Positions 1 through 38,466 of a DNA stretch of 64,000 bases are shown one piece after another. This DNA is from Candidatus Omnitrophota bacterium (GTDB lineage: Bacteria; Omnitrophota; Gorgyraeia; B26-G9; JBDRCZ01). The position numbers were made by a program, and so were the translations under genes. The notes below the pieces were generated by a model. That model did not search any database, was not told where the DNA came from, and saw only the letters and a list, made by a program, of their open reading frames with translations. Within the stretch, counting starts at the first letter, position 1, and each line of letters starts with the position of its first letter. The stretch covers positions 582-64,581 of the forward strand of contig JBDRCZ010000040.1 in NCBI GenBank assembly GCA_043821285.1. The letters are read 5' to 3'.

Positions 1-3000
1 CATATGTTCCCTAAGAAAAGCTACCCACCCTTGTTCTGCGGCTATTTGCATTACCCGCTCACACCACTCATTTCGCAGCCGTTTATGCTTCTTGAAAATA
101 GCATACTCAATAAGCAGTAAAGAAATAATCTCTGCATACAATCGCTTAGTTGAAGCAGCCTGAAAAATTTCTCTCAAACTATTCTTGTTAATTAACCCTG
201 CCCTACTTGCTTCTACTATTATTTCCATGGTTGCTTCACTCATACTAATCTGATACTGCCTAGCAATGTTTTGGACTTGTGGACTTCCCAAAACTTCAGG
301 CGCAGAAGATAAATTTTTAGCTTTTGTTCCCTGCCCACGTAAAGACACCCTAATATCCTTCTGCAGTTTTACAGCCTTTGTGTACTCATCTCTCCTGGCA
401 TGAAAACCACTGATTATTCTTTCTCCTAAATATTTCTCCGCCTCTTTCGGACAAAGGTCTAAAATATACTGACGCGCGTCGTTAACAACTTTCTCATCGC
501 TATCACGTAACACACTCAACACTAATGACTCCACTATTCGTGTCGGGAAGTTTTTCGGCGCAAAGTGCTCACAAATAATATTTTTCTTTGTCTCGATAAT
601 ATTAACCGCTTTTAATCGTCTTCCTTCTTCCTTTTCATTTACCGCGGCCATTAGAAAATGGAACAGTGAATATTGGAGCATTTCTGGCACGAATGCCCAT
701 TGTTCTGCTCTCTCCCGAACATCATCATTCTCTTCATCTAAAGCTGCACTTGCAAAATGTCCCGCGGCATCTCTTACTATTCCCAGTTGAAAGATTAACT
801 CGCCTGCTCTATTACGTAGTTCTTCTTTTTCATCCATAATAGCTGCTCCTACAAGTGGTCCAACGGTTTCTTCTATAAATTTAGGGATAAGTGCCTCGGC
901 TATTGATCGTAATTCTGGAAAATCTTTAAATTCTGGTTCATCTTTAGAAACCGCAAAGCGTACAACCAGCCCTGCGTATTCTTGCAATGGTTCCAGTTTA
1001 TCCAGAGCCAACTCCCAAACACCCCTATCTTTTGAAAAAGTGCTTGCGTTTCTAATGAGCCTTACCGCTCTCCGTCTACGCTCCCTTCTTGTTTCCCATT
1101 CTTTTTTATTAATGCCTGTCCTTATAGTGCCCTGTTCTCGAACACCGGGAGTTTTACCTGGATCTTCTTCGCCTGACATTCTCCTTTCTTCATCGACAAC
1201 AGGTAAAGGCTGTAATGGTTTCCTGCTTCCTGGGAGAATCGTTGTACTGTATGGACTCTTACCTAAGGCAGGGTAGAAACTATAACGTTCAGGAACAGTG
1301 ATACTGCTATCTTGTTTTTTCAAGATGTAAGTATCTACCAATCCCCGCTCTTTTGGACCAATAAATATAGGCATTAAAGTTATATTGATACCCCTTGTTT
1401 TAAATTCTAAGATGATTTCTGAAACTATACTTTCATCCAGCATGTGCTTTAAATTTGGTCCATGAATATATCCTCCATCCTTTGTAACTCGGATAATTTC
1501 AAGCATAACATCAGCCATTTCATCCATATCAATCGCTTCATAGCTTGTAACAATATCTATTGAACTATCCGGTAAAAAATCTAAATTCCGAGCATCCGCC
1601 ACACGAAATTCAACATTAGAAGGTATGTTTCCTTTCCTCCCACGAACCCCTTCATTTTTTAAATTATAAACGACCTTTATAGCCGTAATCGCTATCGAAT
1701 TTTTCCTTAAATCCTCTCTTAACTTTTCATGCCAAATATATGCAGAAATCTCTTGAGCTGCGCGAATAGCATCGGGAACACGATCAATTCCAATTACTTT
1801 CTTAGGATAGCCATATTTATCTATCTTACCAACTGCGGCAAAAAGAACAGGTATCCCTGCTCCACAACCCACATCTAAAATTATCTTCCCATCGAGTTCT
1901 CCTGTGCTTCGATGTATTGCTCCTATTTGCTTGTGTGCGTTAAACGCTCCAAGAGAACAAACTCTTAATGCAGCAAAGTCCTCTGGAGACATTTTTCCCG
2001 GGCTAGTTTCGTATGCAAACCCTACCATTCCCAACCCAAGATAAATCATTAAACCAATAAGACAAGCGCTGATAGCAAAAAGTGGAAGTCCTATCTGATT
2101 TAATCCTAAGCCGAGAATGAAGGCAGCAAATGGCAAGAAACCAAATATCTTAGCTAAAAGTTCATTGTCTCTTGGAAAAAGCACATTCCCCATCTCATAT
2201 AAATTCAGGGATAATTTAACCATGAGCTGCCTAAATGCTGGAAGATTGTTAACAGCTTGACTATAGCTAATGCTCCCAGCCTGCGTCCAGGAAGGCCAAA
2301 CCTCATCATCAGCAAGCGGCAGGCGCCATGCCTTATAATAACCATAAGCCAATACACCCGAAGTACTCATTACCAAGAGTACTGGCAGATTCATCACTAA
2401 TACTGCAGAAAGCTGGGCTAAGATAGAAACATTACTATCAATTTGCATTCCCCCTGCAATGAAATTCCATACCCCGAACAATACTACTCCTATCTCAATA
2501 AGTGCCAAAACTGCATATGTTTTAGCAAAAATCTTTGCCTGTTTTTTTGTTAGGAAAAGTACTGATTCTGCCCTAAGGGGATTTTTAACGCTATGATTAC
2601 GCTGATTAGCTAAGCTTTGGCTTAATCTACTAAAAAATGTCTCACCAAAATGTGTGCAAAAAAAAGCAACAACAATTTCCCCCTTTTTTTTATGTTGTAT
2701 GATATCTTCTCTTCTTACTTCAAGTTCTTCTCTTGAACCAATCTTATTCAAATCAACCCCGAACTTATCTGCCAATTCAAGCAAGAAGATAATTTCTTCT
2801 ACCGCTTTATTTTTATACCCATCTTTATAGCTATTTATTAAATGCTTACGAATCTTCGCTCGCCATTCGCTAAGTAGTTCGCCCTGAAGGAAACGGTATT
2901 CTATAATTACTATAATCGCATTTTTTAAAGCATCGAAAATGTCCTGGGGATAATCCTTAGCAAACGCCAGAAGACGTAACGCAACCTTTTCTTTTTCTCT

Positions 3001-4923
3001 TTCTTTTTCTTTTTTCTCTTCTTTAGATTTCGGTGTTGTAATAGTTGTAATAACTGTTTCTATATCTCGATAAATACCGAACTCACAATATGCTAACAAT
3101 CTTAACAACATCCCCACAGCCCGTCCTTTTTTAGTTAAGGCATAGGCAACAGGTCTATTTTTAATATCTATTTTCTCAATACAACCTGGGGGAACTATAT
3201 CCATTATATTTTGCCCTACAAGGCTAATTTTTTTCTCCGGTACTTCTCCTCCCGCATTTATTTCTCTCGCTATTTCTTTAGGCCGCACTATCGGGTGATG
3301 CTTCCATGTTAAATTAAATAGTGCTATTAAAATCGCTCTTTGTTTTGGATCAAGCGCCGTTACTTCTGATGAAAATCCATCAGACCGCCATAGTTTTTTT
3401 AACTCTTCTGTATCCCGAAGTGCTGGAGCTTCAACAATTCCTGTTTTCTCAATCCCCTTTGGTGTAAGTTCCCACCGCCCCCGATCGGATGAAAGCAACC
3501 CCTCTTTCTTTAACGCCTGCATTACTGCAGCTACTCTTAATTTTTCTATTTCTGCCCCTTCTGATTTTAACCGCTTAAGTTCATCATAAATTTCATCTAA
3601 TGTAGGAAATCGTCCGTTTTTTTCATAATAGCTCACAAATGCCTTGAGTACTAACTTTCTACTAATTATTTTATTTTCTAACGCCATCTCTTTACCATGT
3701 TTATCCTTAACTAAAACAACTTTTTTCCCTTCTCCCCCCTTACATCCAGAAATAACTAATTCTACCTCTGCCCCGGGAGGAAGACTTAACCGCTGCTTAC
3801 TGTTAGGGATATCTAATCTTCCATCTGAAGGGACTCTCGTACGTAGCTGCTCGGTAGAAGCGATGCCATTAAATTCTTCTTTGCCCAGTTTTTCATACCC
3901 CCTTACCAAACAGCCAGTTTTATCATAAATTCGCCACTTTGCTCTTTCGCCAATTAATTGAGCACACAACTCTCCCCTTAGCCTGCGAATAAACTGTTCC
4001 ATTGGTTCTGACTCGTTCCTTGTTATAATAATTGGCTCCCCTTGCAGACTTAAAATCGGCGTATCGTTTTTATAGGTCAAAAAAACCACGCTACTTATTT
4101 CGCCGTTTTTTGTTCTTATCGCAATACAAGCCTCTTCCAGATTAAGCACTGGGAGTAATTCTGTAAAAATAAGGCCACCCGCAAAACTTAACCTTGCGTC
4201 ATCATCCAACCAAGTTATACTTGTTACATCTCCTGTTTCAATGCGTTGTCCATGAATATTCCTAGTAAAAACATACAATAACTTACCTGTGTTATTATCT
4301 ACAACTATTGAACGTCGTACTTCAACAACTTTATCTCCATGAAAAATATACACTATAGTAATCATCTCTTTTTCCCCAGCCACATAGGTCTCATAGACTA
4401 CTTCACTTCCTGCATATTTACTAAATTTAGGATATGGGTTTGATCCTCTTGGCAACTTCCCGTATTTATCTATCACAGCTTTTCCAATTATTTTTCCACC
4501 ATATTTAATTGTAATCTCTTCAGATAACCCGGCAATCCAAACCGCATCTTTTTTTACCGGTATTTCTAAAACCGCTGGGTCCTCAATGTCTCCGGAAACA
4601 ACAAACACCCGCTCCCGATGATTATCATCAATTTTAATAAAAAGCTTGTTTTGTAATACTGCGGAATAAATAACATTAAGGCCGCTTAAAGATTGTTTAT
4701 GCTTCGCACCTTGCCTAATCTGCCGGTATGCCCGGCGTAAGTTTATACTAAGCTCTACTTCTTTTGCAACATCCGGGCCGGAGATATTTATCGCCGGGGC
4801 AAGATGAGTAAATACCCCCTTCAGATTGCCACCCGCAGCCCATGAAATGTCCAGGCAGAAGAAGGCATTTATTAATATTATGGCTATTAGCCTGAACCAA
4901 ATTGTGCGTGCCAAATTATTCAT
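1..4923 (-). CDS. Giant membrane protein, paralogous family member; 3' end runs off the window edge. Carries the shared N-terminal leader, a multipass TM block and a class I SAM-methyltransferase motif.
   Basis: This ORF is absent from the supplied ORF track because it has no in-window stop. Manual translation of the reverse complement gave an open frame of 1641 codons, from the ATG at 4921-4923 to position 1, with no stop seen. The start is preceded by a GAGG ribosome-binding site. The N-terminus MNNLARTIWFRLIAIILINAFFCLDISWAAGGNLKG matches the leader of the other giant ORFs. The following ~60 aa (HLAPAINISGPDVAKEV...LRRAYRQIRQ) and the TM block (AQLSAVLVMNLP...SGVLAYGYYKAWRLPLADDEV...SYSQAVNNLPAFRQ...KLSLNLYEMGNV) are homologous to ORF 5110..13695. 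It contains the motif ILDVGCGAGIPVLF. Confidence 0.7.
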   Translation of the reverse strand, partial: MNNLARTIWFRLIAIILINAFFCLDISWAAGGNLKGVFTHLAPAINISGPDVAKEVELSINLRRAYRQIRQGAKHKQSLSGLNVIYSAVLQNKLFIKIDDNHRERVFVVSGDIEDPAVLEIPVKKDAVWIAGLSEEITIKYGGKIIGKAVIDKYGKLPRGSNPYPKFSKYAGSEVVYETYVAGEKEMITIVYIFHGDKVVEVRRSIVVDNNTGKLLYVFTRNIHGQRIETGDVTSITWLDDDARLSFAGGLIFTELLPVLNLEEACIAIRTKNGEISSVVFLTYKNDTPILSLQGEPIIITRNESEPMEQFIRRLRGELCAQLIGERAKWRIYDKTGCLVRGYEKLGKEEFNGIASTEQLRTRVPSDGRLDIPNSKQRLSLPPGAEVELVISGCKGGEGKKVVLVKDKHGKEMALENKIISRKLVLKAFVSYYEKNGRFPTLDEIYDELKRLKSEGAEIEKLRVAAVMQALKKEGLLSSDRGRWELTPKGIEKTGIVEAPALRDTEELKKLWRSDGFSSEVTALDPKQRAILIALFNLTWKHHPIVRPKEIAREINAGGEVPEKKISLVGQNIMDIVPPGCIEKIDIKNRPVAYALTKKGRAVGMLLRLLAYCEFGIYRDIETVITTITTPKSKEEKKEKEREKEKVALRLLAFAKDYPQDIFDALKNAIIVIIEYRFLQGELLSEWRAKIRKHLINSYKDGYKNKAVEEIIFLLELADKFGVDLNKIGSREELEVRREDIIQHKKKGEIVVAFFCTHFGETFFSRLSQSLANQRNHSVKNPLRAESVLFLTKKQAKIFAKTYAVLALIEIGVVLFGVWNFIAGGMQIDSNVSILAQLSAVLVMNLPVLLVMSTSGVLAYGYYKAWRLPLADDEVWPSWTQAGSISYSQAVNNLPAFRQLMVKLSLNLYEMGNVLFPRDNELLAKIFGFLPFAAFILGLGLNQIGLPLFAISACLIGLMIYLGLGMVGFAYETSPGKMSPEDFAALRVCSLGAFNAHKQIGAIHRSTGELDGKIILDVGCGAGIPVLFAAVGKIDKYGYPKKVIGIDRVPDAIRAAQEISAYIWHEKLREDLRKNSIAITAIKVVYNLKNEGVRGRKGNIPSNVEFRVADARNLDFLPDSSIDIVTSYEAIDMDEMADVMLEIIRVTKDGGYIHGPNLKHMLDESIVSEIILEFKTRGINITLMPIFIGPKERGLVDTYILKKQDSSITVPERYSFYPALGKSPYSTTILPGSRKPLQPLPVVDEERRMSGEEDPGKTPGVREQGTIRTGINKKEWETRRERRRRAVRLIRNASTFSKDRGVWELALDKLEPLQEYAGLVVRFAVSKDEPEFKDFPELRSIAEALIPKFIEETVGPLVGAAIMDEKEELRNRAGELIFQLGIVRDAAGHFASAALDEENDDVRERAEQWAFVPEMLQYSLFHFLMAAVNEKEEGRRLKAVNIIETKKNIICEHFAPKNFPTRIVESLVLSVLRDSDEKVVNDARQYILDLCPKEAEKYLGERIISGFHARRDEYTKAVKLQKDIRVSLRGQGTKAKNLSSAPEVLGSPQVQNIARQYQISMSEATMEIIVEASRAGLINKNSLREIFQAASTKRLYAEIISLLLIEYAIFKKHKRLRNEWCERVMQIAAEQGWVAFLREHM

Positions 4924-5109
4924 ATGTTATGTCCTCTTAGTTAATTTCAAATGCCAAATCTCAAATGAATCATCCAATAAACAAATATTTTAATCTCAAT
5001 TTCTAATTAACCTAATACTTCTCGTATCGTGTATTGAGTATCGAGTATTGAGTTTTTTATTGTAGTTTTTTTATGCTCAATACGCAATACGCAATACTCA
5101 CGACGGTAC
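4924..5109 (-). repeat. Conserved intergenic module of the giant-gene array (heptamer-repeat hairpin plus ribosome-binding site).
   Basis: Contains gagtattgagtatcgagtattgag - A/T loop - ctcaatacgcaatacgcaatactc, an imperfect inverted repeat of TCAATAC(G/T) triplets. Also contains the shared block aattagaaattgagattaaaatatttgtttattggatgattcatttg. Confidence 0.8.
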
Positions 5110-8100
5110 CTAAATCGCACTTTCCACTAATCCCAACTCTACTATCTGCTTCAGCCCCAGTTCTTCAACAGGGCCGGCCAGCACCCCTTCCCACTGCTGC
5201 GGGGAAACATTAACCCATGCCTCTACAATATCCAGAATATCTTGTGGTTGCCATAAACCAAAAACAAATGCGTCTACCTTTTTCTCCAAAACATCACTTC
5301 TAAGGAACACCCCTCCCGCTAAAGGGACTAAAACGCTTACAAATCCTCTGCTGTGCATTTCTGCCGCGTGGCTATTGCTAGAAGAATATATCTTCCACGA
5401 ATTCCCAAAATGCATAATTTGACCTGGCAAAAGTCCTAACTCCTCAACATAACGTTGAAGCAATGGACCATTCAAAACGTCTTTATAACAATAGTCAACA
5501 TACTCGGCAATCTCCGGATGTTTGTTTTTTACATTGCTAAACCATCGCAACACATTAGGATTCCTGATGGTTATGGCAACGCGCAGTCCCATAGACTTAA
5601 GATTTTTAAAAAGCTCTAATAATCCCTCTATTCCATAACCCTGCAGCACCTTTTCCAAAACCTCTTCAAATTCAAAGGAAACTAATTTGATATCCTGCTG
5701 TGGCGGATGAATAATAAAATAATTACCTGTTTGGGGCATTCTCTGGTAAAGTTCTTCTTCTCTAATAACTCTTGGCTGTCCGTGCTTATTATAGACCACT
5801 ATCTGATCCAATAAATCATCGGAAAGCGGTCTGTAATTTAAACAGTGAATTATCCTTCTTAAAATCTCACGATGCTCTTGCCCGCGCGAATAATAATTGC
5901 TGTTGAGGTTAATAAAAAGCTCAAAGGAAATACCTAATTCCGCCAGTTTAATTTCTAATGCTGTTTTAAATTCTTCCCCATAAACCTCAAAATTTAGATC
6001 TTCACAATACCTGACTATCTTATCTAATATTACCCGGTAGTTTATAAGATAGCGCATTATCTCCCCTCTTTCCGCTTCCCCGCGCAAAAAGCGCTCAAAC
6101 ATAGCTAATATTTCTCTTTCAAACGCTGTGATTCTGCTTGCCCTACTTGCCATGGCTGCTTCCCACTGTTTTTGGTCCCGCAATGCACTGATTCCACGCA
6201 AGGCACGCGGGGTACGTTGCTCAGGCTCTGCTTGTCCATCTAAACTCTCTGCCAAAGGAACACTTCCCAAATATATCTTCCCACTATTATGATAAACAAG
6301 CTGATTTTCATGCCCATCAATACTAATAACTCTGCCGTCTTCCATTTTGTGCTCGCCCAGATACCATCCTTTCCTCTCCTCTTCGTCATAAAATTTCATA
6401 TTCGCTACCCCATAAACAGCAGTAATCCCATATGTTTGAGCAAGGGTTTCTGCATGAACAGAAATAATCTGTGCAACAATATGCACACCCCGAGGAATAC
6501 GGTTTATCATCTGCGGATTAACTCTATCCAAAAATAAAATCACACCATCTACGTCTTCTGGCTGTTCACGTTCATACTTCTCTAATAATTCTTCCGCCGC
6601 CTCAGCGGAATTAGCCACCCATCCGCGAAAAGCACCGCCGCTTACCCCGTGTCCGCGGGCAATTGGTTCATAATCCGGTGAATCCACAAATTCCGGATAA
6701 TCATCTTGAATAATATCGTCATTAGTCTGCGTAAGCCACAACTTCCCGAGTTCTACTGTAAACTCAAAGTGTTGATTATTCCCGAATATCTCTTTCAGCT
6801 GATAAGCATAAGCTAATATCTCTTGGTATATCTCTGGCTGTAATTCCTCAAGTGTCTGTTCGTGTTCAAATACCCTCTCTGTATTACTTAAAAGCACATA
6901 ATTCTGACCCGCCCGGCTCATTACCTGGTCTCCCGTAGATTGAAACCTAAATCTTCCCTGAACCACTTCTCTGCCATCAGGCAAAATTCTTAAAGCCGCA
7001 GCTCCTGCCCCGGATATTTTCCCATCTGCTGTTGGTGATAAATTGCCAAATACCCCTTTCTGCAATATAACTACGCTCCCCCATTCCTGCGAAATCCTGT
7101 GCCGCGCACGATACTCCTGAGCCTCGGCAGAATCCCAGGAAGCATAGACAGTATCAATTGCCAGCATTACTTGAACAATCATATCCTCCGGTATCTGTGC
7201 TCCTTTTCCATGTGTACTCACAATTTCTTTGTAACGCTCACATACCCTAATCATTTCTTCTCCAGACATATCATCCTTTTCATAAATATTAAGCACCTCT
7301 TCAAAATATTCCTCCGGAATTCCCAAAATATGAATAGCATACGCCCGGATAAACTCTGCATAAGTATCATAGGCAAACCATACGTCCCCGGTCTGTTCTG
7401 CTAACTCCTGTGCTTCTTTATCATTCATCCCTAAATTAGGTATCGTAACTAAAAGTCCGGGCAGGGCAAACGCCGAGCCGTTGCGCGCGTATAACAATAA
7501 TTTAAGCTCCGGATACTTTGAATATTCTCTTAACCGGGCAATCTCTCCCTCTACCTCTTCTTTGAATTCTTCTGATTTAGAGATCTCTGGCCGGGTAATT
7601 AACCTTGCGCTGATAACCACCCCCGGAGGAACCGGTATACCCTGCTCAGTCATCCAAACTAAATTAAGCCCCTTCTTACTCCACAGAGAAAGCAGGCGCT
7701 CGCGGGGAATTACATCTTCTTCTTGGCCAAATCTAAAAAACTGCTCTTCCATGACAATCTCATCCGTAGAGTCTCCGCCATCTATAAATTCATCATTACC
7801 CAAAGTCAGCTCATTCTCTAATATCTGATTAAACCGCATCAGCGCATCATCAAAGGCAAGTATTCCGGTATCGCGAATCAGCCCATCAATAAACTCACTC
7901 GCAGCTTGCTCTTTTCCTTCTTCACTAATAACTTCGCTTTCACCCCCAAATTCATCTATTCTTTTTTCAGTTTTTATTCTATCTTGCCACTCCTGTGTTA
8001 AATCCGCTAATTGCAGATTATCCCAGAAATGCCCCATTGCAAAGCGCATGTTTTCATTAATCTTGCGATTAATCTTATGCACTTCTGTACGTAATGCCCT

Positions 8101-11100
8101 GACTAAATCATGCACCTGGGAATATTTCATTCTGCCGTGCTCAAGTTCTTCAATAAACTGCGCAAAATCTATTCCTCCTAAGCCAGATGCATGCATAAAT
8201 TTTGCCATCGAAACTAAACTAGGAACATATTCTTTCAAGTCTTCCATGTCCTGGCATTGATTAATCTCTTCCAACCCCCTTACAATCATCTCTTTCCCCA
8301 ACATAAACATATTATAATCTAATTTCATCAACTCCTCTTTGTTCTCCAGACGATCATTCCGGTCAAATAACAAGTGCTGTCTGATTGCCCTCCGGCACTC
8401 AGCTATTGCCGAAAGAACAGCCTTATGTCCATCAGTATCAATAACCGAAATAAGCTGTGCATATTCCTGCTGCATAAATGATGTCAGTTCCAACATGTTT
8501 TTCTTGCGCCCCTCTCTCTCATTTTCCGCCCCAATTTCTCCTTTTATCTTAGGAACAATAGCCGCGGCAACCACACCATAACGCTCACTCAATGCATAAT
8601 ATAGCCGGATCATATACTCAACCTTCTCTAAGTCAGATGCCTGCGCATCTGGATTAGCTTCATGCAATGCCTTTATGACATCCTCTTCAGACATATTAAG
8701 AATTTCTGCTAAAAAACTATCCCCGGCTAATGATTTTATCTGCCCATTTTCCAAAAGTTTATTCAGCATTTGGTTAATTATTTCGGAATATGTTCGAGTC
8801 TTTTCCGCTCCAATATCTTTTTTTAAATTAGCAATAAGCTCATCTTTAGAATCTCGTATCATATCCTCATTTAATGCCTTCCAAAAATATAAAACTGTTT
8901 TTATTGTGCGCCGGTCTCTTGAACTTCCAGCGTGGTGGATTCTATTTCTTAACAAGGAAAACCATGTACGGCCATATTCTCCTGCATAACCAGCCCCACT
9001 ATCGAGCATAATAGTATTTCTAACTATCCGGTTATCAATAGCAGCATTTGTAACCCCTCCTTTTTTTCTTCTTTCTTCCATCTTTAAAAGATAATAATAG
9101 ATATTTTGTGATTCAGGGGTCAATAGATTAATTGTAGGTCCACGCCCACTCAACAGCTGAAGCAAGTGACTATCTTCTCTCCTCCATAATGGCTCAGCTT
9201 CTATTCCCACTAAATTAGCCTGTAAAAGACAAAAACTTGCTACTGCTTCTTTTTTGTATCGAACATTTTCTAAAAGGCTAAACAATAACGCAAGGTTTTT
9301 TCTACCTATTCTGAGTCTAAAAAGAACATCCATGGCCTTATAGGTTTTCTCTATATCTTTCTCCCTAAAAATTCTTGCTATCGTACGAAATGTGTCGATA
9401 TTAGAATTAAACAACAAAGCCGCCAAAACCTCCAGAAACCGTTCATTTTCCTCCTTAGTATTATTTGCATCAAGATAAAACTCCCAGAACATATCCTCTA
9501 CTCCCTCTACAAAAATTTCTCCTAACCTTAAAAGCATTATTCCTGTATCTATATCAGTTTCTAAGACAAATCTTCTTAAATAATTCTTTAAGGTTTCTGG
9601 TAATAATAATCCAAAAATACTGTGAATATCGCTTGCATCAACACCCAATTGTTCTTTTAAAAAGTAGTTTTCTTCGGACTTCATCTCATCCATCCTATCA
9701 TTCAACTTGCTTAATCTATCCCATCGCTGATTATATGTTTGTATCACTGAACCCAGTTCTTCAAATGAACATATTGGTGTGGTTTGCTGAATGATCTTTT
9801 TCAAAACACCTTCTATCGGGCTATAACCCGCCTCATAAAGCCTTACACTGATTACAAAGGGGGCAATATCTACCAGCACAGGATAGTCAATATCTTGTAT
9901 TATTGACCTAATCTTTTCATTTAAATCTTCTGGAACATCCCATGCGCCTACTAACCCCTGTTCTTTATCAAGCAGTACTTTAAAATGCCTCTTGGATTTT
10001 ATCTCTTCTTCAGCAGAGTCAAACTGATTAGCCGCATTCCCAATCGTCTCAAACTGGCCATAAAAGACAAAGGTTTGATCAGCCCTTAACATCTCCTGCA
10101 TTTTCCCTTGCCATTGCCATTGCCTATTCTCGCACTCAGCAGGATAATCGCTTTTATCAGTAAACACGGGAATAACCCCGCTATCTTCTCCAAGCACTGC
10201 TTGTATTATCTCAAGATAATCCACCCCATTCTTGGTTCGTGCCATTTGGTCAATAAACTCACGCAGAAAAATCTGCAACCTGCTTTTCCAAAGGACTCCC
10301 TCTGCATCTCTATAATAATTTTCCCTAAATATGTATTGCTGTATTTGCCTTGCCGCTTGATGTCCGGCTTTATAACATATTGCCTCATGGAAAAACAGTT
10401 CTGCTAAAAGTTCCATCGGCATTGTACTGATAAACTCCCCAGCTGCCCCAATCTCATTTTCATCACCATACGCCAGGGCAAAATCCTCTTTAGTATATAC
10501 TATTGCCGGAAATGAAAATAAGGCATTGTTTTCATACAACTCTTCAAGATGCTCCAACCCTGTTTTTGCCTGATCTAAATATTTTGGCAGGTTTTCCCTT
10601 TCCCATGCTGTTTGAGCCTGTGGGATATTTGTTTCAAACTCTTCAATTTTAGACCGGATATACTCTATAATCTCGTCAAAATTGGCAATATCAACCGGGG
10701 TAAGCTTACCTCTCTGCTCTTTCCTTATTGTTGCCAATTCCCCAGGTGCCTCCCCACCTCGAGATTGAACAAATCCATGATTATCTGTTTGTGCATTTGG
10801 TGCTATTTTGTTACCCTGAATATCGAATATATGCCCCCTTAACTCTGGGTGAGCGTCAATGATTTCCCGCAAAAGTTCAGCCGCAAATTCATGACTAAAG
10901 TAAAATTCTCCTGCAAAACGTTGAGGAGTATAATTTTCCCCTCGCTGCATTTGCTCAATAGCCTCCTGTTTTGCCTCTTCTATGGTGTAGATTGTTTCAA
11001 AAGGTTCCCTAAACCCTAAAAGAAGTATTCTTAAGAAAAGCAAAAAATTCTGTCGCTCAGAAAAAGGTAAATGAACAACGTGTATCCCGAATCTTGAAAG

Positions 11101-13695
11101 TGGAGGTAGTCTTGTAAATTTCCATCTATGGCGTGCCCTTATCACAGCTCTTTCAGAAGCAAATACTAAAAATTCATAGATTGAATGGAATGTTCCGACA
11201 TATCGAGCATGTTGCAATAAAAATTCACTCATATCTGTCATAATATCAAGATAATACATCTTGTTTTTTCTCCATTCTCTCTGATTGAATAGCCACGACC
11301 CTCTGGCACGCCTAAGAATAAAATATCGCAGTGTTGATGGCTGTTCTGTAAGACCTTTGGAAATGTAAAGCATGCTCTCGGGTAAATCTCTCACTTTCCC
11401 TTTTGCTGGAAATTCTGTTGTAATATGAAATCCTTTTACATACGAGAGAACATCTAATAATTCTGTATCATTCTGTTCCCGGGCTTCTTCTCGCAACCTT
11501 TCAACTATAAATTCCGCCCGTTCCACTGGAGATTTAGAATAATATTCCCTATAATATGCACGCCTAAAAAGAAATGTTGTGGTTAATCTTATTGGCAAAA
11601 CCATAAGTGGTTCAAAAATTAACTGTTGTATAAAAACCATAGCAAGGTCTACTACTATCAAAAATAATAGCGGTCCGATAATCAAAAATTGAATCTCTTG
11701 AGGAAGATGCGGACAAACTACAAGTGCAGCTAAAAATAACGGTACAACTTGCACCCACAAGGGGAATGAACGTGCTATAGTAATAACAGCAGAAATAATA
11801 GCTCCCCCCAGCCAATTGCGGATGTTTGTAACAACATTACCTAACCTTACCAAAATAGGCAACGCTGTTTCACTATCTTTTACAAATTTACTACCCCACA
11901 CACCCAACCCCAGATAAATCCCTGCGCCAATAATCGTTATAAGGAATGACAATGGAAAGAGTTCAATTTTATTAAAAATCAAACCTATTTGATTCACAAT
12001 CAACCCAATACTTATTATTGCCAGTGGCAAAGCAGTAAATCCTTTAGCCGAAAGTTCATCATCTCTTGGGAAAAACACATTCCACATCTCATATAAATTC
12101 AGGGATAATTTAACTATGCCTTGACGTAGTGCTGGAAGGTTGTTAACAGCTTGACTGTAGCTAATGCGACCTTCTTTTGTCCATGAAGGACCAACTTCAC
12201 CGTCAGCAAGCGGCAGGCGCCATGCCTTATAATAACCATAAGCCAATACTCCGGAGATGATCATCCCCAAGAGCGCTGGCAAATTCATTACTAATACTGC
12301 AGAAAGCTGGGCTAAGATAAAATCACCACTAGCAAATCCCATCCCACTGGCAAAGAAATTCCATAGGCCCACACCCAGTATAATACCTGTCAAGACTGAA
12401 TAAGCGGCAAAAAAACCCCTCGCCCATTCTTTGGTAAGGGGCAAACGCGTTGACTTAGGAGTACGTTGCTCACTTTGTTTACCCCAATAAGCTTTGCTTA
12501 ATGTATCAAAAAATTTGTACCCCACTCCTACTGGTACTGCAAGGAAGGTTAGCACTGTTGCTCCCCATTGCTCTTGTAGTTGTTTTTGTGCTTCAGACGC
12601 TTCTGTTGAGTCACCCCAGACATTACATAACAGTATCTTAATGCTTACTAATCTCGCTATGTTCGCTGGTGGCTCAATAGTACCTTGGTTGTCTCCTTCT
12701 TTCTCAATTGCTTTATCAATCATCTCCTTTGTCACTACTGCCGCTAATTTAGCTGAAACAATTTCAGGATAATTTTTACCCAGGTTCATAAGCCGCGTAG
12801 AAACTCTCAGCTTATCTTCGTTAACTTCTTCTATGTCTTCTTCCCTATATTCCTCGCTATCTTCTTCTGTATCTTTTGGCGTAAGTGTTTCTATGTCCTG
12901 ATAAATCTCAATGCCTTGAAAATACGCTCTCAATCTGATAATTAATTCCTCCTGAGCCTCTTGTAAATCCGCTGCCCCCAGAGTAAATCCATACATTTCC
13001 ATAATCCTCTTTTTATAAGCTTTTGTCTTAGGATCAACTTCTATTTCTTTAATTGGCACCAGAACCGTAGAGTCAGTTTTTTTACTAACCTCTCTTCCTT
13101 GTAAAAGCGGCATCACGTCCATCTCTAAAGCAGCACTAAGAGTATTGGCAATAAGTTCTATAGTTTCTATGCGCGGGTTATATGTTTTTCCTCTTTCGAT
13201 TTCTGAAATCACTCCCTGATTCAATCCTAAATCTCCTTGATTCAATCCAGCCCCTTGTCGTAAAATCCGGATAGCTTCTCCAACTGTGTATCCATCACCT
13301 GGTCCAAGTTCTTTAATAACTGGATCCTTGCCCCTCTCAGAAACAACAAACACTCGATTATTACCATTATCATTAATTATAATAAAAAGCCTTCTCTTAT
13401 CTATTACGGCTGCTTTTGAATAAGTAATACCATGCCGATCTAATACTTGCCCGGGATTTATATCTTCCGTTATCCGCATAATTTGTCTAACCTCTCTATA
13501 TGCCCGGCGTAAATCTATAATAAGCCCCACGTCTTTTGCAAAATCAGCACCAGAGATATTTATCGCCGGCGCCAAATGAGCAGACAATCCCTTCAGATTG
13601 CCACCTGCAGCCCAGGAGATGTCTAAGCAGAAAAAGGCTTGGATCAGTACGATAGATATTAATTTGAATAATATGTGTTGTTTTAGCTTACTCAT
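5110..13695 (-). CDS. Giant membrane protein (2861 aa) with the shared leader, a multipass TM block (aa ~400-720), and a large C-terminal region holding a PEP-synthase/PPDK-like ATP-binding motif and a phosphohistidine-like mobile-domain motif. Ends in SAI.
   Basis: ORF track. N-terminus is MSKLKQHILFKLISIVLIQAFFCLDISWAAGGNLKG. Long hydrophobic stretches. The motif GLNLVWMTEQGIPVPPGVVIS resembles the PPDK_N G-x-P-V-P-x-G-F-x-I motif. The motif VAQIISVHAETLAQTYGITAVYGV resembles the PEP-utilizing mobile domain. GAGG ribosome-binding site 9 nt upstream of the ATG. Confidence 0.85.
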   Translation of the reverse strand: MSKLKQHILFKLISIVLIQAFFCLDISWAAGGNLKGLSAHLAPAINISGADFAKDVGLIIDLRRAYREVRQIMRITEDINPGQVLDRHGITYSKAAVIDKRRLFIIINDNGNNRVFVVSERGKDPVIKELGPGDGYTVGEAIRILRQGAGLNQGDLGLNQGVISEIERGKTYNPRIETIELIANTLSAALEMDVMPLLQGREVSKKTDSTVLVPIKEIEVDPKTKAYKKRIMEMYGFTLGAADLQEAQEELIIRLRAYFQGIEIYQDIETLTPKDTEEDSEEYREEDIEEVNEDKLRVSTRLMNLGKNYPEIVSAKLAAVVTKEMIDKAIEKEGDNQGTIEPPANIARLVSIKILLCNVWGDSTEASEAQKQLQEQWGATVLTFLAVPVGVGYKFFDTLSKAYWGKQSEQRTPKSTRLPLTKEWARGFFAAYSVLTGIILGVGLWNFFASGMGFASGDFILAQLSAVLVMNLPALLGMIISGVLAYGYYKAWRLPLADGEVGPSWTKEGRISYSQAVNNLPALRQGIVKLSLNLYEMWNVFFPRDDELSAKGFTALPLAIISIGLIVNQIGLIFNKIELFPLSFLITIIGAGIYLGLGVWGSKFVKDSETALPILVRLGNVVTNIRNWLGGAIISAVITIARSFPLWVQVVPLFLAALVVCPHLPQEIQFLIIGPLLFLIVVDLAMVFIQQLIFEPLMVLPIRLTTTFLFRRAYYREYYSKSPVERAEFIVERLREEAREQNDTELLDVLSYVKGFHITTEFPAKGKVRDLPESMLYISKGLTEQPSTLRYFILRRARGSWLFNQREWRKNKMYYLDIMTDMSEFLLQHARYVGTFHSIYEFLVFASERAVIRARHRWKFTRLPPLSRFGIHVVHLPFSERQNFLLFLRILLLGFREPFETIYTIEEAKQEAIEQMQRGENYTPQRFAGEFYFSHEFAAELLREIIDAHPELRGHIFDIQGNKIAPNAQTDNHGFVQSRGGEAPGELATIRKEQRGKLTPVDIANFDEIIEYIRSKIEEFETNIPQAQTAWERENLPKYLDQAKTGLEHLEELYENNALFSFPAIVYTKEDFALAYGDENEIGAAGEFISTMPMELLAELFFHEAICYKAGHQAARQIQQYIFRENYYRDAEGVLWKSRLQIFLREFIDQMARTKNGVDYLEIIQAVLGEDSGVIPVFTDKSDYPAECENRQWQWQGKMQEMLRADQTFVFYGQFETIGNAANQFDSAEEEIKSKRHFKVLLDKEQGLVGAWDVPEDLNEKIRSIIQDIDYPVLVDIAPFVISVRLYEAGYSPIEGVLKKIIQQTTPICSFEELGSVIQTYNQRWDRLSKLNDRMDEMKSEENYFLKEQLGVDASDIHSIFGLLLPETLKNYLRRFVLETDIDTGIMLLRLGEIFVEGVEDMFWEFYLDANNTKEENERFLEVLAALLFNSNIDTFRTIARIFREKDIEKTYKAMDVLFRLRIGRKNLALLFSLLENVRYKKEAVASFCLLQANLVGIEAEPLWRREDSHLLQLLSGRGPTINLLTPESQNIYYYLLKMEERRKKGGVTNAAIDNRIVRNTIMLDSGAGYAGEYGRTWFSLLRNRIHHAGSSRDRRTIKTVLYFWKALNEDMIRDSKDELIANLKKDIGAEKTRTYSEIINQMLNKLLENGQIKSLAGDSFLAEILNMSEEDVIKALHEANPDAQASDLEKVEYMIRLYYALSERYGVVAAAIVPKIKGEIGAENEREGRKKNMLELTSFMQQEYAQLISVIDTDGHKAVLSAIAECRRAIRQHLLFDRNDRLENKEELMKLDYNMFMLGKEMIVRGLEEINQCQDMEDLKEYVPSLVSMAKFMHASGLGGIDFAQFIEELEHGRMKYSQVHDLVRALRTEVHKINRKINENMRFAMGHFWDNLQLADLTQEWQDRIKTEKRIDEFGGESEVISEEGKEQAASEFIDGLIRDTGILAFDDALMRFNQILENELTLGNDEFIDGGDSTDEIVMEEQFFRFGQEEDVIPRERLLSLWSKKGLNLVWMTEQGIPVPPGVVISARLITRPEISKSEEFKEEVEGEIARLREYSKYPELKLLLYARNGSAFALPGLLVTIPNLGMNDKEAQELAEQTGDVWFAYDTYAEFIRAYAIHILGIPEEYFEEVLNIYEKDDMSGEEMIRVCERYKEIVSTHGKGAQIPEDMIVQVMLAIDTVYASWDSAEAQEYRARHRISQEWGSVVILQKGVFGNLSPTADGKISGAGAAALRILPDGREVVQGRFRFQSTGDQVMSRAGQNYVLLSNTERVFEHEQTLEELQPEIYQEILAYAYQLKEIFGNNQHFEFTVELGKLWLTQTNDDIIQDDYPEFVDSPDYEPIARGHGVSGGAFRGWVANSAEAAEELLEKYEREQPEDVDGVILFLDRVNPQMINRIPRGVHIVAQIISVHAETLAQTYGITAVYGVANMKFYDEEERKGWYLGEHKMEDGRVISIDGHENQLVYHNSGKIYLGSVPLAESLDGQAEPEQRTPRALRGISALRDQKQWEAAMASRASRITAFEREILAMFERFLRGEAERGEIMRYLINYRVILDKIVRYCEDLNFEVYGEEFKTALEIKLAELGISFELFINLNSNYYSRGQEHREILRRIIHCLNYRPLSDDLLDQIVVYNKHGQPRVIREEELYQRMPQTGNYFIIHPPQQDIKLVSFEFEEVLEKVLQGYGIEGLLELFKNLKSMGLRVAITIRNPNVLRWFSNVKNKHPEIAEYVDYCYKDVLNGPLLQRYVEELGLLPGQIMHFGNSWKIYSSSNSHAAEMHSRGFVSVLVPLAGGVFLRSDVLEKKVDAFVFGLWQPQDILDIVEAWVNVSPQQWEGVLAGPVEELGLKQIVELGLVESAI

Positions 13696-14074
13696 ATGTT
13701 AATGCCTCATTACTTAATTTCAAATGCCAAATGCCAAAATCCCCGCCACAAAGTCGAAGATCCGCCAACGCTTTGTAGTGGACATCGGCGGACGGGCAAA
13801 TTCCAAATGACAAATGAATCATCCAATAAACAAATATTTTAATTTTAATTTCTAATTAACCTAATACTTCTCGTATCGAGTATTGAGTTTTTTATTGTAG
13901 TTTTTTTATGCTCAATACGCAATACACATTACTAATTAAATCCTCGATACCCAATGCGTAGTTTTAAAGTCTTTCTCCGTGTCCTCTGTGCGCTCTGTGG
14001 TAAAATTTTATTTTTTTCGTGTATTTCGTGGTTGAAAATAAATTTTGATTTTTGAAGTTTGGATTTTGGATTTA
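13696..14074 (-). repeat. Conserved intergenic module with the heptamer hairpin, a GC-rich small hairpin, the CACNGAG x3 repeat and the TTTCGTG x2 element.
   Basis: Shares long nucleotide stretches with 21869..22424 and 27615..27965. Confidence 0.8.
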
Positions 14075-17000
14075 TCAAATCGCCCTCTCTACCTCTTCCA
14101 ACCTACTTACCTGCATAGCGTCGAGTACTTCCGTAGAAAATAGAGTATCATTATATAGTGATTCTTTTGGCATAGTTAATAGCAGTACTTCCTCCAATAA
14201 TTGTTGTGTCTTACCCTTACTATCTCTATAATCAACTCCATCAATTATCTCTCCCAGTGCCACAACTGTTTCGTCCAGAAGAGCCCTTACCTCACCGATA
14301 AAAACCGGGTTCTTCTGGCGTTCCTGCTCAAGAAGTATCAAAGTTGGCTTTATCGGTTCCCAGTCTGCTTCGTAACGATCTGGCCAGCCCCCCAGTGAGC
14401 GTGATTCTTTTAAAAACCATCTCACATCAAGCGCACTTTCAAGGTTATGCTTTCTGAAAATTTCCCTTAAACTATTTTGAAAATAATCCCATACTATTGC
14501 TGCCTGCTGCGTTTTATCATTTGATTCAATCATCCCTTCTTTAGAAGCAAGTGCCCAGCATAAACGCTGCCAAGCTCTGGACTCAAAGAAAAGCCTTCCT
14601 GTTTCCTTAAATTCCTCTTCTGCTTTATTTAGCTGTTCCTCCTCTAAATAGATTCCCTGAAATTGCATTTTTATAAACTGCTCTAAATATTGCATGTATA
14701 CTATTGCATGACGATTAAGATAATCTGTTCTGCCTTCAAGCTGAGGTGCCCCATGGATATGTTCCACAACTCCTCCACCATGTACCAAAGGTGCACTTTT
14801 ACCCCAGGTAGTCTCAAATGGGCCTTCTTTCCAATCATCATGTGCATAAGGAGATGTGGCAAGAAGGGCTATGGCAATATGTTTTGCTTCATCAGGTAAT
14901 CTGCCTTGCACAGTCATCATATCTGTATAATATTCTCCCTCTTCACCAAGAAGCCCTAATTGTCTAAGATGCACAAGTATATACGACAGTGTATCCGCGG
15001 CACGGCTAGGAGGAACAATAATATGTTCTCTCTCTAAAACTGTTCCTCGATTACGCACGTCAAAACCAAGGAGACGATACATCTTGTTTTTAGACATACT
15101 AAATGGAAACTGCGGGTAGACTTTTCGCCCCACAGGTTGTAGATCTCTACTTCTCTCTTCTCGGTTAAGAATAAGTTCAACTACTTCTTTTTTAATTCTT
15201 TGGCGTAAGGCATCTTTATTTTCTAAAATATCTGTAACCTTCTTTCCTTCTTCCAGTTGTTCTAATATCCTTACCACTGCTCCAAGCTTTATCGCCATTT
15301 TTGCACCTGGGGATATATCTTGAGGAAATTCTTTGTCTAATCTAAGGCTGTCGGCAATCATCACAGCACGAAAATAAGAGTCGATCGAGGGGATCTGCTC
15401 AATCCAATCTTCTATAGGAACCAAGCACGCTTTAAAAAATGCAGCAAGAAAAGCAATGCACCATAATAGCCCAAAATTAAGGCTCTGATCATAGAGTGAT
15501 GCTCCAGGCAAAAGTAAAGATAGCGCTAATATACTAACAATAAATAGCGCACAGTGACGAAAAATTCTTATATTTTCAACTCCTTGTTTTTTAAGTAATT
15601 GGGAACTTTCTCTTAGAATATATCTTATCGTTAAGTCCACTATGCTCATCCCTTCTTTTAGTCCTCTGTTCTGAATTTCTTTAGTAAAACTCCAGAAATT
15701 TCGAAAATACGGTTTTAGCAATAACCTATTGAAAATAAAACTCCAAAGTTTCCATGTGGAATTTATAGATAGAAGTACATTAACACAAAGAAATATCATA
15801 AGTAGCACTAAGTATTCCGTCCAGTCACAACTAGCAATAACCTTAAGCATAACAGGGCCCCATTCACTAAATAAAACCACTATACTTAAAACTAAAAGAC
15901 TACCATAAGCGAATAATATTTCTATATCTGCCTTAACTTCATTTTCTGTTTTTAACACTAAATGGCTTAGTTCATGCGGCAGGACAAACCAGTAGGATAT
16001 CTTTATGGCAATTGTGGCACTAATGCTTATAATTGTCTGTAGATAAAAAGGTAAAGAAGAACGCTTGAGTCTTTTCTGGACTTTTTCTATATATTCATCT
16101 GTGTTATTAATAATTCTGTTAGTATTCGGGTCAAATTCAGCTAAAGGATTAAATCCAGTTATTATGGCAATCCCAGAGATAATCGCAGAAACAAGTGGAA
16201 TAAGTATAAACACTGTTAAAAATGCTCCAGCCAAGATACCCGCAAACATATTCGTAGCAAAAACAGGCCAAAACCCGGTTAAAACACTATATCCCCCAAC
16301 CGCCCCACTCATCAAAAACGCAGCCACGGATGTCCAAAATTGGTGTTTCGGGGTTATGGGAAGTTTATCAGATACTAACACCTTTTCTGGTAATATTCTA
16401 TGGAATAATCCTGCAATATATGCTGCAACTAAAGAATCCTCTACAGATTTTATCCGATTAGCATTCGCTAAGTATTGTGTCCAAGATATTTTCTCTTGCA
16501 ATAAAGCTATTGCTTGTTCTAACATACTAATTGCAAATTCAACCCTTTTAACGCTAATTTTGTCCTGTTCTTCACGGAAATGATTTAGTCCCGGGAACCG
16601 TACCTTACGTGATCTATTACCAGGATTACCAACAGCATCTAATAAGCTCTCTACATAATTATAAACGCTACTAAGTTCTATATGTATCCTATTTAAGTCT
16701 CCATAAAGCAATTCACTATGCTCATGGACCATAACTTCTATTCTTTTTAGCCGTTCCAGAATAGGATGCAATGCACTTAGCGAAACATCATATATAACCT
16801 CATTCTTATAATTTGTCCCTTTTATCCTATCCAAATCTCCCTTCGCAATTGCAAGGTTTGATAGCACCGCTCGAAGCCGCTTTATATTATTCTTAAACCC
16901 CGGCACAGGATCAGGTTCATATATTCGTGTAAAGTATCCTAATAAATCCGGGCTACTTATCTCTAAAGCAGGTGCAAGATGAGTGTTTAAACTTTTTATA

Positions 17001-17098
17001 TCCCCACCCGCAGCCCAAGCAATATCTAAGCAGAAAAAGGCATTCACCAATATTACGGCGATTAGTTTAAATAATATGTTATGTTTTAGCTTGTACAT
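14075..17098 (-). CDS. Giant-family membrane protein (1007 aa) with the shared leader. An HExxH motif (LPHELSHLV) lies inside its TM block. C-terminus is EEVERAI.
   Basis: ORF track. N-terminus MYKLKHNILFKLIAVILVNAFFCLDIAWAAGGDIK. Multiple hydrophobic helices between aa ~240 and 470. Conserved C-terminal tail. Confidence 0.8.
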   Translation of the reverse strand: MYKLKHNILFKLIAVILVNAFFCLDIAWAAGGDIKSLNTHLAPALEISSPDLLGYFTRIYEPDPVPGFKNNIKRLRAVLSNLAIAKGDLDRIKGTNYKNEVIYDVSLSALHPILERLKRIEVMVHEHSELLYGDLNRIHIELSSVYNYVESLLDAVGNPGNRSRKVRFPGLNHFREEQDKISVKRVEFAISMLEQAIALLQEKISWTQYLANANRIKSVEDSLVAAYIAGLFHRILPEKVLVSDKLPITPKHQFWTSVAAFLMSGAVGGYSVLTGFWPVFATNMFAGILAGAFLTVFILIPLVSAIISGIAIITGFNPLAEFDPNTNRIINNTDEYIEKVQKRLKRSSLPFYLQTIISISATIAIKISYWFVLPHELSHLVLKTENEVKADIEILFAYGSLLVLSIVVLFSEWGPVMLKVIASCDWTEYLVLLMIFLCVNVLLSINSTWKLWSFIFNRLLLKPYFRNFWSFTKEIQNRGLKEGMSIVDLTIRYILRESSQLLKKQGVENIRIFRHCALFIVSILALSLLLPGASLYDQSLNFGLLWCIAFLAAFFKACLVPIEDWIEQIPSIDSYFRAVMIADSLRLDKEFPQDISPGAKMAIKLGAVVRILEQLEEGKKVTDILENKDALRQRIKKEVVELILNREERSRDLQPVGRKVYPQFPFSMSKNKMYRLLGFDVRNRGTVLEREHIIVPPSRAADTLSYILVHLRQLGLLGEEGEYYTDMMTVQGRLPDEAKHIAIALLATSPYAHDDWKEGPFETTWGKSAPLVHGGGVVEHIHGAPQLEGRTDYLNRHAIVYMQYLEQFIKMQFQGIYLEEEQLNKAEEEFKETGRLFFESRAWQRLCWALASKEGMIESNDKTQQAAIVWDYFQNSLREIFRKHNLESALDVRWFLKESRSLGGWPDRYEADWEPIKPTLILLEQERQKNPVFIGEVRALLDETVVALGEIIDGVDYRDSKGKTQQLLEEVLLLTMPKESLYNDTLFSTEVLDAMQVSRLEEVERAI

Positions 17099-17341
17099 AT
17101 CTCACCAAATATATTCATGAATTTCTAATTAACCTAATTGCTATTTCTCGTATTGAGTATTGCGTATCGAGTATTACGGTTTTTAAATTCGCAGTGATTA
17201 GTATATTTCACTCTTTGCCCCATGTCCTTTGCTTTCTGTTTTTAACATTTTGATTTTTGATTTTTTTCTGTCATCTGTTTGCTGTCTTTTAACTTCGGTT
17301 TCTTACACTAAATACGCAATACACAATACTCACAACGGTAA
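17099..17341 (-). repeat. Conserved intergenic module (a divergent copy).
   Basis: Contains attgagtattgcgtatcgagtattacgg and aaatacgcaatacacaatactcacaacggtaactaaatcgccc. Confidence 0.7.
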
Positions 17342-27614: not shown

Positions 27615-27965
27615 ATGTTAATGCCTCATTAGTTAATTTCAAATCTCAAAATCCAAATGACAAATGAATCATCCAATAAACAAATATTTTAATCTCAATT
27701 TCTAATTGACCTAATTTCCCCAACCTGAACAAGCCAGAACCAAACATAATCACACCACATTTGGCTCGTCCAGCTTGTCATATAAAAACCTTCGTGTTCA
27801 AACTTTCCCTTTTTATTTTTTCTGTCCTCTGACTTCTGTATTCTGTTCTCTTATGCTCGATACCCAATACTCAATGCGTAGTTTTAAAGTCTTTCTCCGT
27901 GTCCTCTGTGCGCTCTGTGGTAAAATTTTTATTTTTTTCACGCAATCCGCAATACGTATCTCCAA
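27615..27965 (-). repeat. Upstream module of the last array gene, with the same conserved blocks.
   Basis: ctccgtgtcctctgtgcgctctgtggtaaaattttt at 27894-27925 is identical to 13974-14005. Confidence 0.75.
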
Positions 27966-28030
27966 CACCTAATTCCAAATAATCACCACGATTAAGTGAA
28001 TTTAAAATAAATTTAAAAATAGGATATTAA

Positions 28031-38318: not shown

Positions 38319-38466
38319 ATTAAATTATCGCCTTCGGCGTTAATTTGCCAACTACCTTTTCTTTGAAAAGAAAAGGTAGACCAAAAGAAAAAAAATAACC
38401 GTCCCTTTTAACACGGTACACAGTCAACCGTAAACGCTGCGACATACGATATACCATAATCTCCAT

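Follow-up and report, generated by a model that had tools for sequence, protein, structure and literature searches.

A putative barrel-less histidine-swivel dikinase core in a long, leader-bearing protein of Candidatus Omnitrophota

In a 64-kb stretch of Candidatus Omnitrophota DNA (the window, i.e., the whole stretch analyzed; ~40% G+C, with nearly all genes on the minus strand), six long open reading frames (ORFs A-F) encode proteins of 973-2,861 amino acids (aa). Here we report on the 2861-aa product of ORF B (5110-13695 (-)). Its conserved C-terminal core (aa ~955-2830) joins a PPDK-type ATP-grasp domain to a phosphohistidine swivel and carries a HAD-fold domain where PPDK has its TIM barrel; on the sequence evidence presented below, we favor the view that this core is a barrel-less histidine-swivel dikinase with a non-pyruvate acceptor. 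Omnitrophota are uncultured, ultra-small and probably host-dependent bacteria, and few gene products are as poorly understood as their long and giant proteins. A first-pass annotation of the window, made from the letters alone, had proposed that the long proteins contain cofactor-dependent enzymes and are more than passive surface repeats. This main point was upheld by an ATP-grasp domain, a swivel domain and four methyltransferases, and the missing barrel, its HAD-fold replacement and an Omnitrophota-specific clade go beyond it. Overall, what that annotation had observed was confirmed in part, and its interpretation was partly supported.

The C-terminal core of ORF B

The PPDK-type ATP-grasp nucleotide-binding domain occupies aa 2003-2326 (6718-7689 (-)). 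As had been noticed at first pass, a PPDK_N-like motif, GLNLVWMTEQGIPVPPGVVIS (aa 2009-2029, window 7609-7671), lies ~400 aa upstream of a motif of the PEP-utilizing mobile histidine domain, VAQIISVHAETLAQTYGITAVYGV (aa 2407-2430, window 6406-6477), and both were found in the places given for them. When the PPDK_N assignment was checked with Pfam hidden Markov models (HMMs), PF01326 matched aa 2008-2324 with an E-value of 2.8e-7 and 30.6 bits, against a cut-off of 27. A phmmer search of the PDB aligned aa ~2003-2326 with Clostridium symbiosum PPDK (2r82; E=1.2e-42), and the PPDK model TIGR01828 matched ORF B at E=2.5e-59, with 201 bits vs. an equivalog cut-off of 843. By these sequence comparisons, the ATP-grasp identity of the domain is beyond doubt.

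The phosphohistidine swivel domain follows at aa 2383-2463 (6307-6549 (-)), with His2414 (codon 6454-6456), within ISVHAETLAQ, as the predicted phospho-carrier. This residue aligned to the PPDK residue numbered His455, which we take to be the catalytic histidine of that enzyme. The swivel had been predicted at first pass as a PEP-utilizer domain; the aligned histidine and the S-V-H around it, invariant in 29 aligned relatives, speak for this assignment, but PF00391 scored only 21.0 bits on an isolated 160-aa swivel fragment (E=2.5e-4), below its cut-off of 23.1, and the alignment of the swivel to PPDK residues 422-510 gave 11 bits. In the ATP-grasp domain, the residue map to PPDK reads K2008=K22, R2071=R92, G2080=G101, E2311=E323 and Q2323=Q335. 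The equivalent of Q240 is also kept, while D321, R337 and R135 are changed to His, Asn and Glu, respectively. For all active-site residues other than Lys22, roles like those in PPDK are presumed.

To define the clade to which this unit belongs, 1.84 billion representative proteins were scanned in full by HMMER, with aa 2331-2861 of ORF B as the query. The swivel-plus-C-terminal region matched 43 proteins only, all of them long and multidomain, with canonical PPDKs absent. Some 14 of the 43 match over both the swivel and the HAD-like domain, in proteins of 1,452-6,939 aa in which the module is often internal, and ~25 match over the swivel alone, in proteins of 1,600-5,975 aa with other partners. 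As judged from these sequences, the dikinase unit is an Omnitrophota-only clade; the closest homologues of ORF B are likewise all annotated as Candidatus Omnitrophota, with PF01326 only. Other barrel-less PPDK-like proteins, e.g., P0029 and P0010, occur elsewhere. Among the aligned clade members, K2008, R2071, G2080, E2311 and Q2323 were directly observed to be invariant in 28-29 of 29, and S2412 and H2414 in all 29, against a surrounding sequence of only 31-76% identity. Since the checked residues of the ATP site and the serine and histidine of the swivel are invariant, the dikinase is probably active, perhaps with modified chemistry, rather than a relic. Lys22 is essential in rifampin phosphotransferase and has been implicated in PPDK (PMC4844700).

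The PEP/pyruvate TIM barrel (PF02896) was found neither in the whole of ORF B (E<=0.01) nor in its C-terminal fragment (E<=5). Because this barrel is absent and the TIGR01828 score lies far under the equivalog cut-off, ORF B is neither a PPDK nor a PEP synthase. Of the six parts of the core, a helical linker comes after the swivel domain, and at aa ~2660-2830 (5206-5718 (-)), where PPDK has its barrel, ORF B carries a C-terminal domain of HAD fold with a Rossmannoid core. Its motif I reads LVSFEFEEVL, with E2675 and E2677 instead of DxD; the threonine of motif II (ITI) is kept; and motif IV (HFGN) has Asn for Asp, G-N being found in most relatives. The PF00702 score of this domain is under the Pfam cut-off. 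In the 14 relatives with the domain, motif I takes the form [E/D]-x-[D/E]-x-V, with mostly Glu in the first position (Asp in three, Gly in one) and mostly Asp in the third. Thus, the acidic pair of motif I is conserved in the aligned sequences, but Glu usually stands where the canonical nucleophile would be Asp, which makes ordinary HAD phosphatase chemistry doubtful. In one relative, P0145, a canonical receiver domain (aa 2313-2425; PF00072, E=3e-41) stands directly behind the swivel, in the position of the HAD-like domain. Receivers are Rossmannoid domains that accept phosphate on an acidic residue.

The conservation of the core extends well upstream of the dikinase. The orthologue at locus L003 is 43% identical over aa 970-2829, and this block is kept as one piece in orthologues from three other metagenome-assembled genomes. 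The first core domain (aa ~955-1320; 9736-10833 (-)) contains the motif HEAICYKAGH (aa 1103-1112; 10360-10389 (-)), of which the H, E, C and H of the general form HE[AS]xCxxxxH are invariant in 10 relatives, and which may be a metal site. No Pfam match was obtained for this domain, a profile search found no solved structure, and the AF2 model was poor. The region at aa ~1350-1970 (7786-9648 (-)) is conserved with the orthologues L003, P0002, P0003 and P0006 and was modeled as all-alpha: the AF2 model of the middle region (md9f97d66d086), built from four sequences and poor overall (pLDDT 55), shows helices only, with a pLDDT of 60-88 in this part. Foldseek returned only weak karyopherin/HEAT-like matches, i.e., generic alpha-solenoids (E>=0.009, TM-score ~0.1). 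Going by this model, aa ~1350-1970 probably form a solenoid-like scaffold. A sequence search of aa 32-2000 against solved structures returned nothing.

Membrane topology and the shared leader, tail and upstream DNA

The multipass transmembrane (TM) block that the first-pass annotation had placed upstream of the dikinase was located by Kyte-Doolittle profile and lysine/arginine (K/R) counts at aa 378-710 (11566-12564 (-)). Hydropathy puts the block at aa ~378/427-710, the two starting points reflecting one weak helix (378-396; Kyte-Doolittle 1.42) ahead of six strong ones (427-445, 466-484, 556-574, 579-597, 643-661 and 671-710), and K/R-rich loops predicted to be cytoplasmic lie at 397-426, 485-555, 598-642 and after 710. 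The block is partly homologous to aa 605-968 of ORF A (42% identity). Because the loops at 397-426 and after 710, and with them both ends of the six-helix bundle, would be cytoplasmic by the positive-inside rule, ORF B is predicted to export its N-terminal part, to cross the membrane with seven TM helices and to keep its C-terminal 2,150 aa, dikinase core included, in the cytoplasm.

The first-pass annotation had extended such an arrangement, i.e., cytoplasmic modules behind an exported, membrane-anchored N-terminus, to the long proteins at large. ORF B is consistent with it, but it is not general, because ORFs E and F and at least six relatives have the leader without a TM block. In ORFs E and F, no TM helix was found besides the shared leader, and in the relatives P0123, P0128, P0132, P0136, P0146 and P0149 the same dikinase core stands behind a Sec-like leader with no TM block; in P0123, it begins only ~40 aa past the leader. 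Either these proteins are exported to a place where ATP and S-adenosylmethionine (SAM) exist, in or on a host or prey cell, or the leader does not drive export. The cargo of the family includes XRE and Fis helix-turn-helix (HTH) domains, receiver domains and methyltransferases, which are typically cytoplasmic.

An XRE-type HTH was detected in ORF B itself, between the leader and the TM block (aa 139-188; 13132-13281 (-)), where HTH_3 (PF01381) scored 22.9 bits against a cut-off of 23 (E=8.8e-5) over a sequence containing ...ISEIERGKTYNP... Sitting between a Sec-like leader and a TM block, this HTH would be extracytoplasmic by standard topology rules. HTH-like sequences were also seen by eye right behind the leader of the relative P0129, and the equivalent region of ORF A gave weak winged-helix matches (Mrr_N, HrcA).

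The leader of ORF B (aa 1-31, MSKLKQHILFKLISIVLIQAFFCLDISWAAG; 13603-13695 (-)) is Sec-like, with a positive n-region, a hydrophobic core of ~17 aa and S-W-A preceding AGG. The first ~50 aa are common to all six long ORFs at 50-70% identity, and the remainder of the proteins is unrelated except in ORFs A and B, which additionally share aa 1-130 and the TM-block region. The exact leader, with two matches among 5.8 billion proteins, is by sequence nearly unique to this lineage; looser versions, of the form ...AFLLQDIAWAAP..., are present in the relatives, which also close with an amphipathic C-terminal helix and small residues after it. In a search with a leader profile, matches to the relatives were confined to their N-termini, and the idea that the leader is a relic of internal module junctions in a once-fused giant gene was therefore not supported. 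At the other end, ORF B closes with LVESAI (5113-5130 (-)) and the stop codon, and V-[E/Q]-[R/S/E]-A-I ends all five ORFs whose C-terminus falls inside the window.

The DNA upstream of the long ORFs is repeated as well. Ahead of ORF B, the intergenic cassette (13696-14074 (-)) comprises conserved blocks, a Shine-Dalgarno sequence (GAGG) and the ATG, and the upstream DNA of all six ORFs (4924-5109, 13696-14074, 17099-17341, 21869-22424, 27615-28014 and 48556-48955) shares blocks that are 76-97% identical, over >300 nt. One block of 47 nt is present in four copies and one of 22 nt in three, where none would be expected. The repeated DNA had no match in Rfam, and promoter and terminator scans gave results not above chance. 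Taken together, leader, tail and upstream DNA look like one cassette for expression and targeting that surrounds largely unrelated cargo, which suggests shared regulation and targeting for the whole protein family.

A different repeated element was noted in the relatives P0139, P0141 and P0142, in which [R/K]-S-E-[L/M/I]-R occurs 9-16 times per protein, compared with ~0.3-0.4 expected, apparently between modules; in some places, by eye, a segment resembling a TM helix or a lipoprotein signal comes next. The motif, possibly a marker of junctions or processing sites in these polyprotein-like giants, is absent from the six long ORFs of the window.

A candidate mechanism and its alternatives

The scheme that we consider reasonably probable for the core of ORF B is as follows. 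The PPDK-derived ATP-grasp domain would bind ATP and phosphorylate His2414 on the mobile swivel, with a pyrophosphoryl-histidine intermediate expected on the model of PPDK, rifampin phosphotransferase and glucan water dikinase. The swivel would then swing the phosphate over to another site, which the HAD-like domain or the upstream conserved domain would form or adjoin and at which a non-pyruvate acceptor would receive it. Because its catalytic Asp residues are replaced and the motif IV Asp is lost, the HAD-fold domain in the place of the barrel could be the acceptor-binding site or the acceptor itself. We counted the receiver behind the swivel of P0145 in favor of a hand-over of phosphate to a Rossmannoid partner. 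What the sequences show is the identity of the domains, the lack of the barrel, the invariance of the histidine and of the checked ATP-site residues, and the Omnitrophota-only clade; that the core is catalytic, which way the phosphate travels and what takes it up are inferred, and ORF B most likely phosphorylates some acceptor other than pyruvate. A more specific version, in which the ATP-grasp/swivel unit feeds a phosphorelay of a kind not yet described and phospho-His2414 passes its phosphate not to a metabolite but to an acidic residue of the Rossmannoid domain (HAD-like in ORF B and 13 relatives, receiver in P0145), with leader and tail serving as lineage-wide address labels, seems to us improbable; if true, it would be a dikinase-driven analogue of histidine-kinase/receiver signaling.

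Several observations weigh against the scheme. The swivel falls under its Pfam cut-off, and the HAD-like domain is without the canonical Asp nucleophile (one relative has Gly), so that its role in catalysis or as acceptor is uncertain. At the position of D321, ORF B has His and the clade varies, and at that of R337, 26 of the 29 members have Asn; because both are changed, the chemistry of the ATP site may differ from that of PPDK. Upstream of the dikinase stand ~1,000 conserved residues with no recognized fold. As to location, the cytoplasmic placement of the core hangs on the single weak helix at 378-396, and the TM-less relatives, with a Sec-like leader ahead of the same core, conflict with that placement.

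Omnitrophota are thought to be predatory or parasitic. The long proteins might be exported effectors whose Sec leader is cleaved and whose dikinase and methyltransferases act where ATP and SAM are to be had, in or on a host or prey cell, with the TM block of ORF B as a membrane-insertion device instead of an anchor in the producer. The leader does have the n/h/c organization of a signal peptide and A-x-A-type sites (SWA|A, AWA|A), at N-termini only; ORFs E and F and the six TM-less relatives listed above have no further TM helix between it and the enzyme modules, and in P0123 ~40 aa separate it from the dikinase core. A 2026 preprint reports signal peptide and TM helices together for 39% of Omnitrophota long proteins and a signal peptide alone for 9%, with type II secretion or pilus genes adjoining 13 of 14 giants (10.64898/2026.06.07.730766); a host-dependent lifestyle is described in PMC10066038. 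We nevertheless regard export as unlikely. The K/R-rich loops of ORF B point to an ordinary topology in the inner membrane, with the core on the cytoplasmic side, the family cargo consists of typically cytoplasmic regulators (XRE/Fis HTH, receiver), and the ORFs scanned next to the long ORFs in the 64-kb window included no genes of a secretion system or pilus, the window instead holding Rnf and polysaccharide-export genes.

The same sequence features that qualify the catalytic scheme could be taken to mean that the dikinase and HAD-like domains have lost catalysis and contribute only structure or binding to a large membrane-associated scaffold. In favor of this are the substitutions at the positions of D321 and R337, the degeneracy of HAD motifs I and IV and the low Pfam scores (PPDK_N with 30.6 bits, PF00391 and PF00702 under their cut-offs). 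That the equivalents of K22, R92, G101, E323 and Q335 (28-29 of 29) and the S-x-H of the swivel (29 of 29) were kept despite deep divergence argues against such a loss of function, and the substituted residues are conserved in their turn, with Asn shared by 26 of 29, suggesting modified rather than lost chemistry; we think a pseudoenzyme scaffold improbable. By far the least probable is an ordinary metabolic PPDK or PEP synthase fused to other domains. The best annotated matches of ORF B are indeed PPDKs, at 28-31% identity. These matches, however, extend over only some half of the query, the swivel-plus-C-terminal region has no match among canonical PPDKs, the PEP-utilizers_C barrel is missing, and TIGR01828 reaches 201 of 843 bits, so that this explanation was refuted by domain content.

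With the barrel-less dikinase as the favored reading, what would have been a catalogue entry, 'PPDK_N domain', becomes a testable hypothesis, namely a conserved and, from its sequence, probably active swivel dikinase that recurs in the long proteins of Omnitrophota. The finding of the same core behind a TM block in ORF B and directly behind a leader in relatives also sharpens the question of where the ATP- and SAM-dependent modules work. For the long proteins as a group, a role as signaling or modification machines, as envisaged at first pass, is a plausible candidate.

Other modules, genomic setting and relation to known systems

The methyltransferases announced for ORFs A, D and F were all recovered, as four class I domains above Pfam cut-offs with the four quoted motif-I strings in place. 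ORF A (1-4923 (-); its C-terminus is cut off by the window edge) has a class I SAM-methyltransferase at aa 1011-1153 (1465-1893 (-); ILDVGCGAG), which matched Methyltransf_31, Methyltransf_11 and Methyltransf_25 with E-values of 4e-12 to 6e-10. ORF D (17342-21868 (-)) has two such domains (17624-18766 (-)), at aa 1035-1154 (VLDIGTRKG) and aa 1290-1415 (ILDVGSGLG), and ORF F (48956-51877 (+)) has one at aa 735-836 (51158-51463 (+); FVDVGGGYPG; Methyltransf_2, E=1.8e-11; Methyltransf_11, E=9.7e-9). The second domain of ORF D (17624-18001 (-)) is TrmB-like (Methyltransf_4, TIGR00091), resembling tRNA m7G methyltransferases.

Two further assignments were not sustained and failed the refuting check that had been set at first pass. 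A GNAT domain had been proposed for ORF F, in which no such match was found for the whole protein (Pfam E<=0.01, NCBIfam E<=0.1) and no Pfam match of any kind for aa 500-720 (E<=0.5). ORF C (14075-17098 (-); 1,007 aa) had been likened to a site-2 protease on the strength of LPHELSHLV within a predicted TM helix. The motif exists (aa 373-381), but it lies at the end of a hydrophobic segment, the second site-2-protease motif (NxxPxxxLDG) is absent, and the protein matched no peptidase family. Moreover, a single HExxH in the six proteins is near chance (0.23 expected; at least one in 22% of shuffles). ORF C and ORF E (22425-27614 (-); 1,729 aa) are without any recognizable domain.

Outside the long ORFs, the genes of the window are of ordinary chromosomal kinds. 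Two tRNA genes are among them, as are genes for a methyltransferase, a DEAD-box helicase, a nitroreductase and an M48 peptidase with LemA. The regions 37188-46669 and 52760-63039 are flanking chromosome, with a polysaccharide synthesis and export cluster (GT1, Wzx-like, PMT_2, Wzy_C, Wzc-like GNVR/ATPase, Wza/SLBB) and Rnf/Fe-S/porin genes, the latter comprising an Rnf complex with ApbE, a porin and NADH-dehydrogenase-like (NuoF-like) Fe-S proteins. An anti-phage defense system was considered and rejected, as the PADLOC matches were to a generic methyltransferase (mad2) only. GC skew is strongly negative (about -0.2 to -0.3) over the window (1-64000); all the large genes but one are on the minus strand, and the single stretch of near-zero skew is where the plus-strand ORF F lies.

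That PPDK_N, HAD and methyltransferase modules are present in such proteins is already known, since they are catalogued in the literature on Omnitrophota giant proteins. In West-Roberts et al. (2023, 10.1101/2023.11.21.568195), PPDK_N and HAD_2 are among the 20 commonest giant-protein domains and methyltransferase-type domains are also named as common ones, and the 2026 preprint (10.64898/2026.06.07.730766) describes a 'Module 1' of methyltransferase, GNAT and HAD together with helical scaffolding and signal-peptide-plus-TM topologies. ORFs A-F resemble these giants in phylum, in their signal peptide and/or TM helices, in their mosaic of PPDK_N, HAD, methyltransferase and regulatory domains and in helical scaffolding. 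In contrast to giants of 10,000-147,000 aa, however, they are separate tandem genes for 973-2,861 aa, with promoter/leader cassettes of their own, and stay under the 10,000-aa length threshold of the literature, the relatives with the dikinase core reaching 6,939 aa. In the papers on Omnitrophota that were searched by term, neither a barrel-less swivel dikinase with a HAD-like or receiver partner and an invariant active site nor a shared leader, tail and promoter cassette is mentioned, and both appear to be undescribed there.

The HAD-like domain of ORF B differs from HAD phosphatases (PH1655, 2hoq; phosphoglycolate phosphatases; beta-phosphoglucomutase) in motif I, which is D-x-D-x-T/V in those enzymes, E-x-E-x-V in ORF B and [E/D]-x-[D/E]-x-V in the family, in the change of the motif IV Asp to Asn, and in its sub-threshold Pfam scores. 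With PPDK (EC 2.7.9.1; C. symbiosum 1kbl/2r82), ORF B shares a homologous ATP-grasp domain (E=1e-42), the order of ATP-grasp followed by swivel, the catalytic histidine and the K22, R92, E323 and Q335 equivalents. Unlike PPDK, it has no TIM barrel, it carries other residues at the positions of D321 and R337, and its module (aa 2003-2480) is embedded in a membrane protein of 2,861 aa.

Among the barrel-less His-swivel dikinases that have been characterized are rifampin phosphotransferase (RPH; PMC4844700), glucan water dikinase (GWD; PMC13553574), PigC/HapC (PMC13534948) and the aromatic kinases HpeHI/MarK (PMC12167813, PMC12624787). A search of the PDB with aa 1951-2861 (E<=1) for homology to the acceptor domains of such enzymes (RIF-binding, CBM45 and others) returned only PPDK and PEP synthase. 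ORF B is unlike RPH and GWD in its domain order, in its HAD-fold partner and in an ATP-grasp domain of PPDK rather than PpsA/RPH type. Its likeness to RPH, GWD, PigC/HapC and HpeHI/MarK is one of architecture, i.e., an ATP-grasp domain and a mobile histidine domain coupled, in ORF B putatively, to a non-pyruvate acceptor domain, following the same logic by which phosphate is carried between two distant sites.

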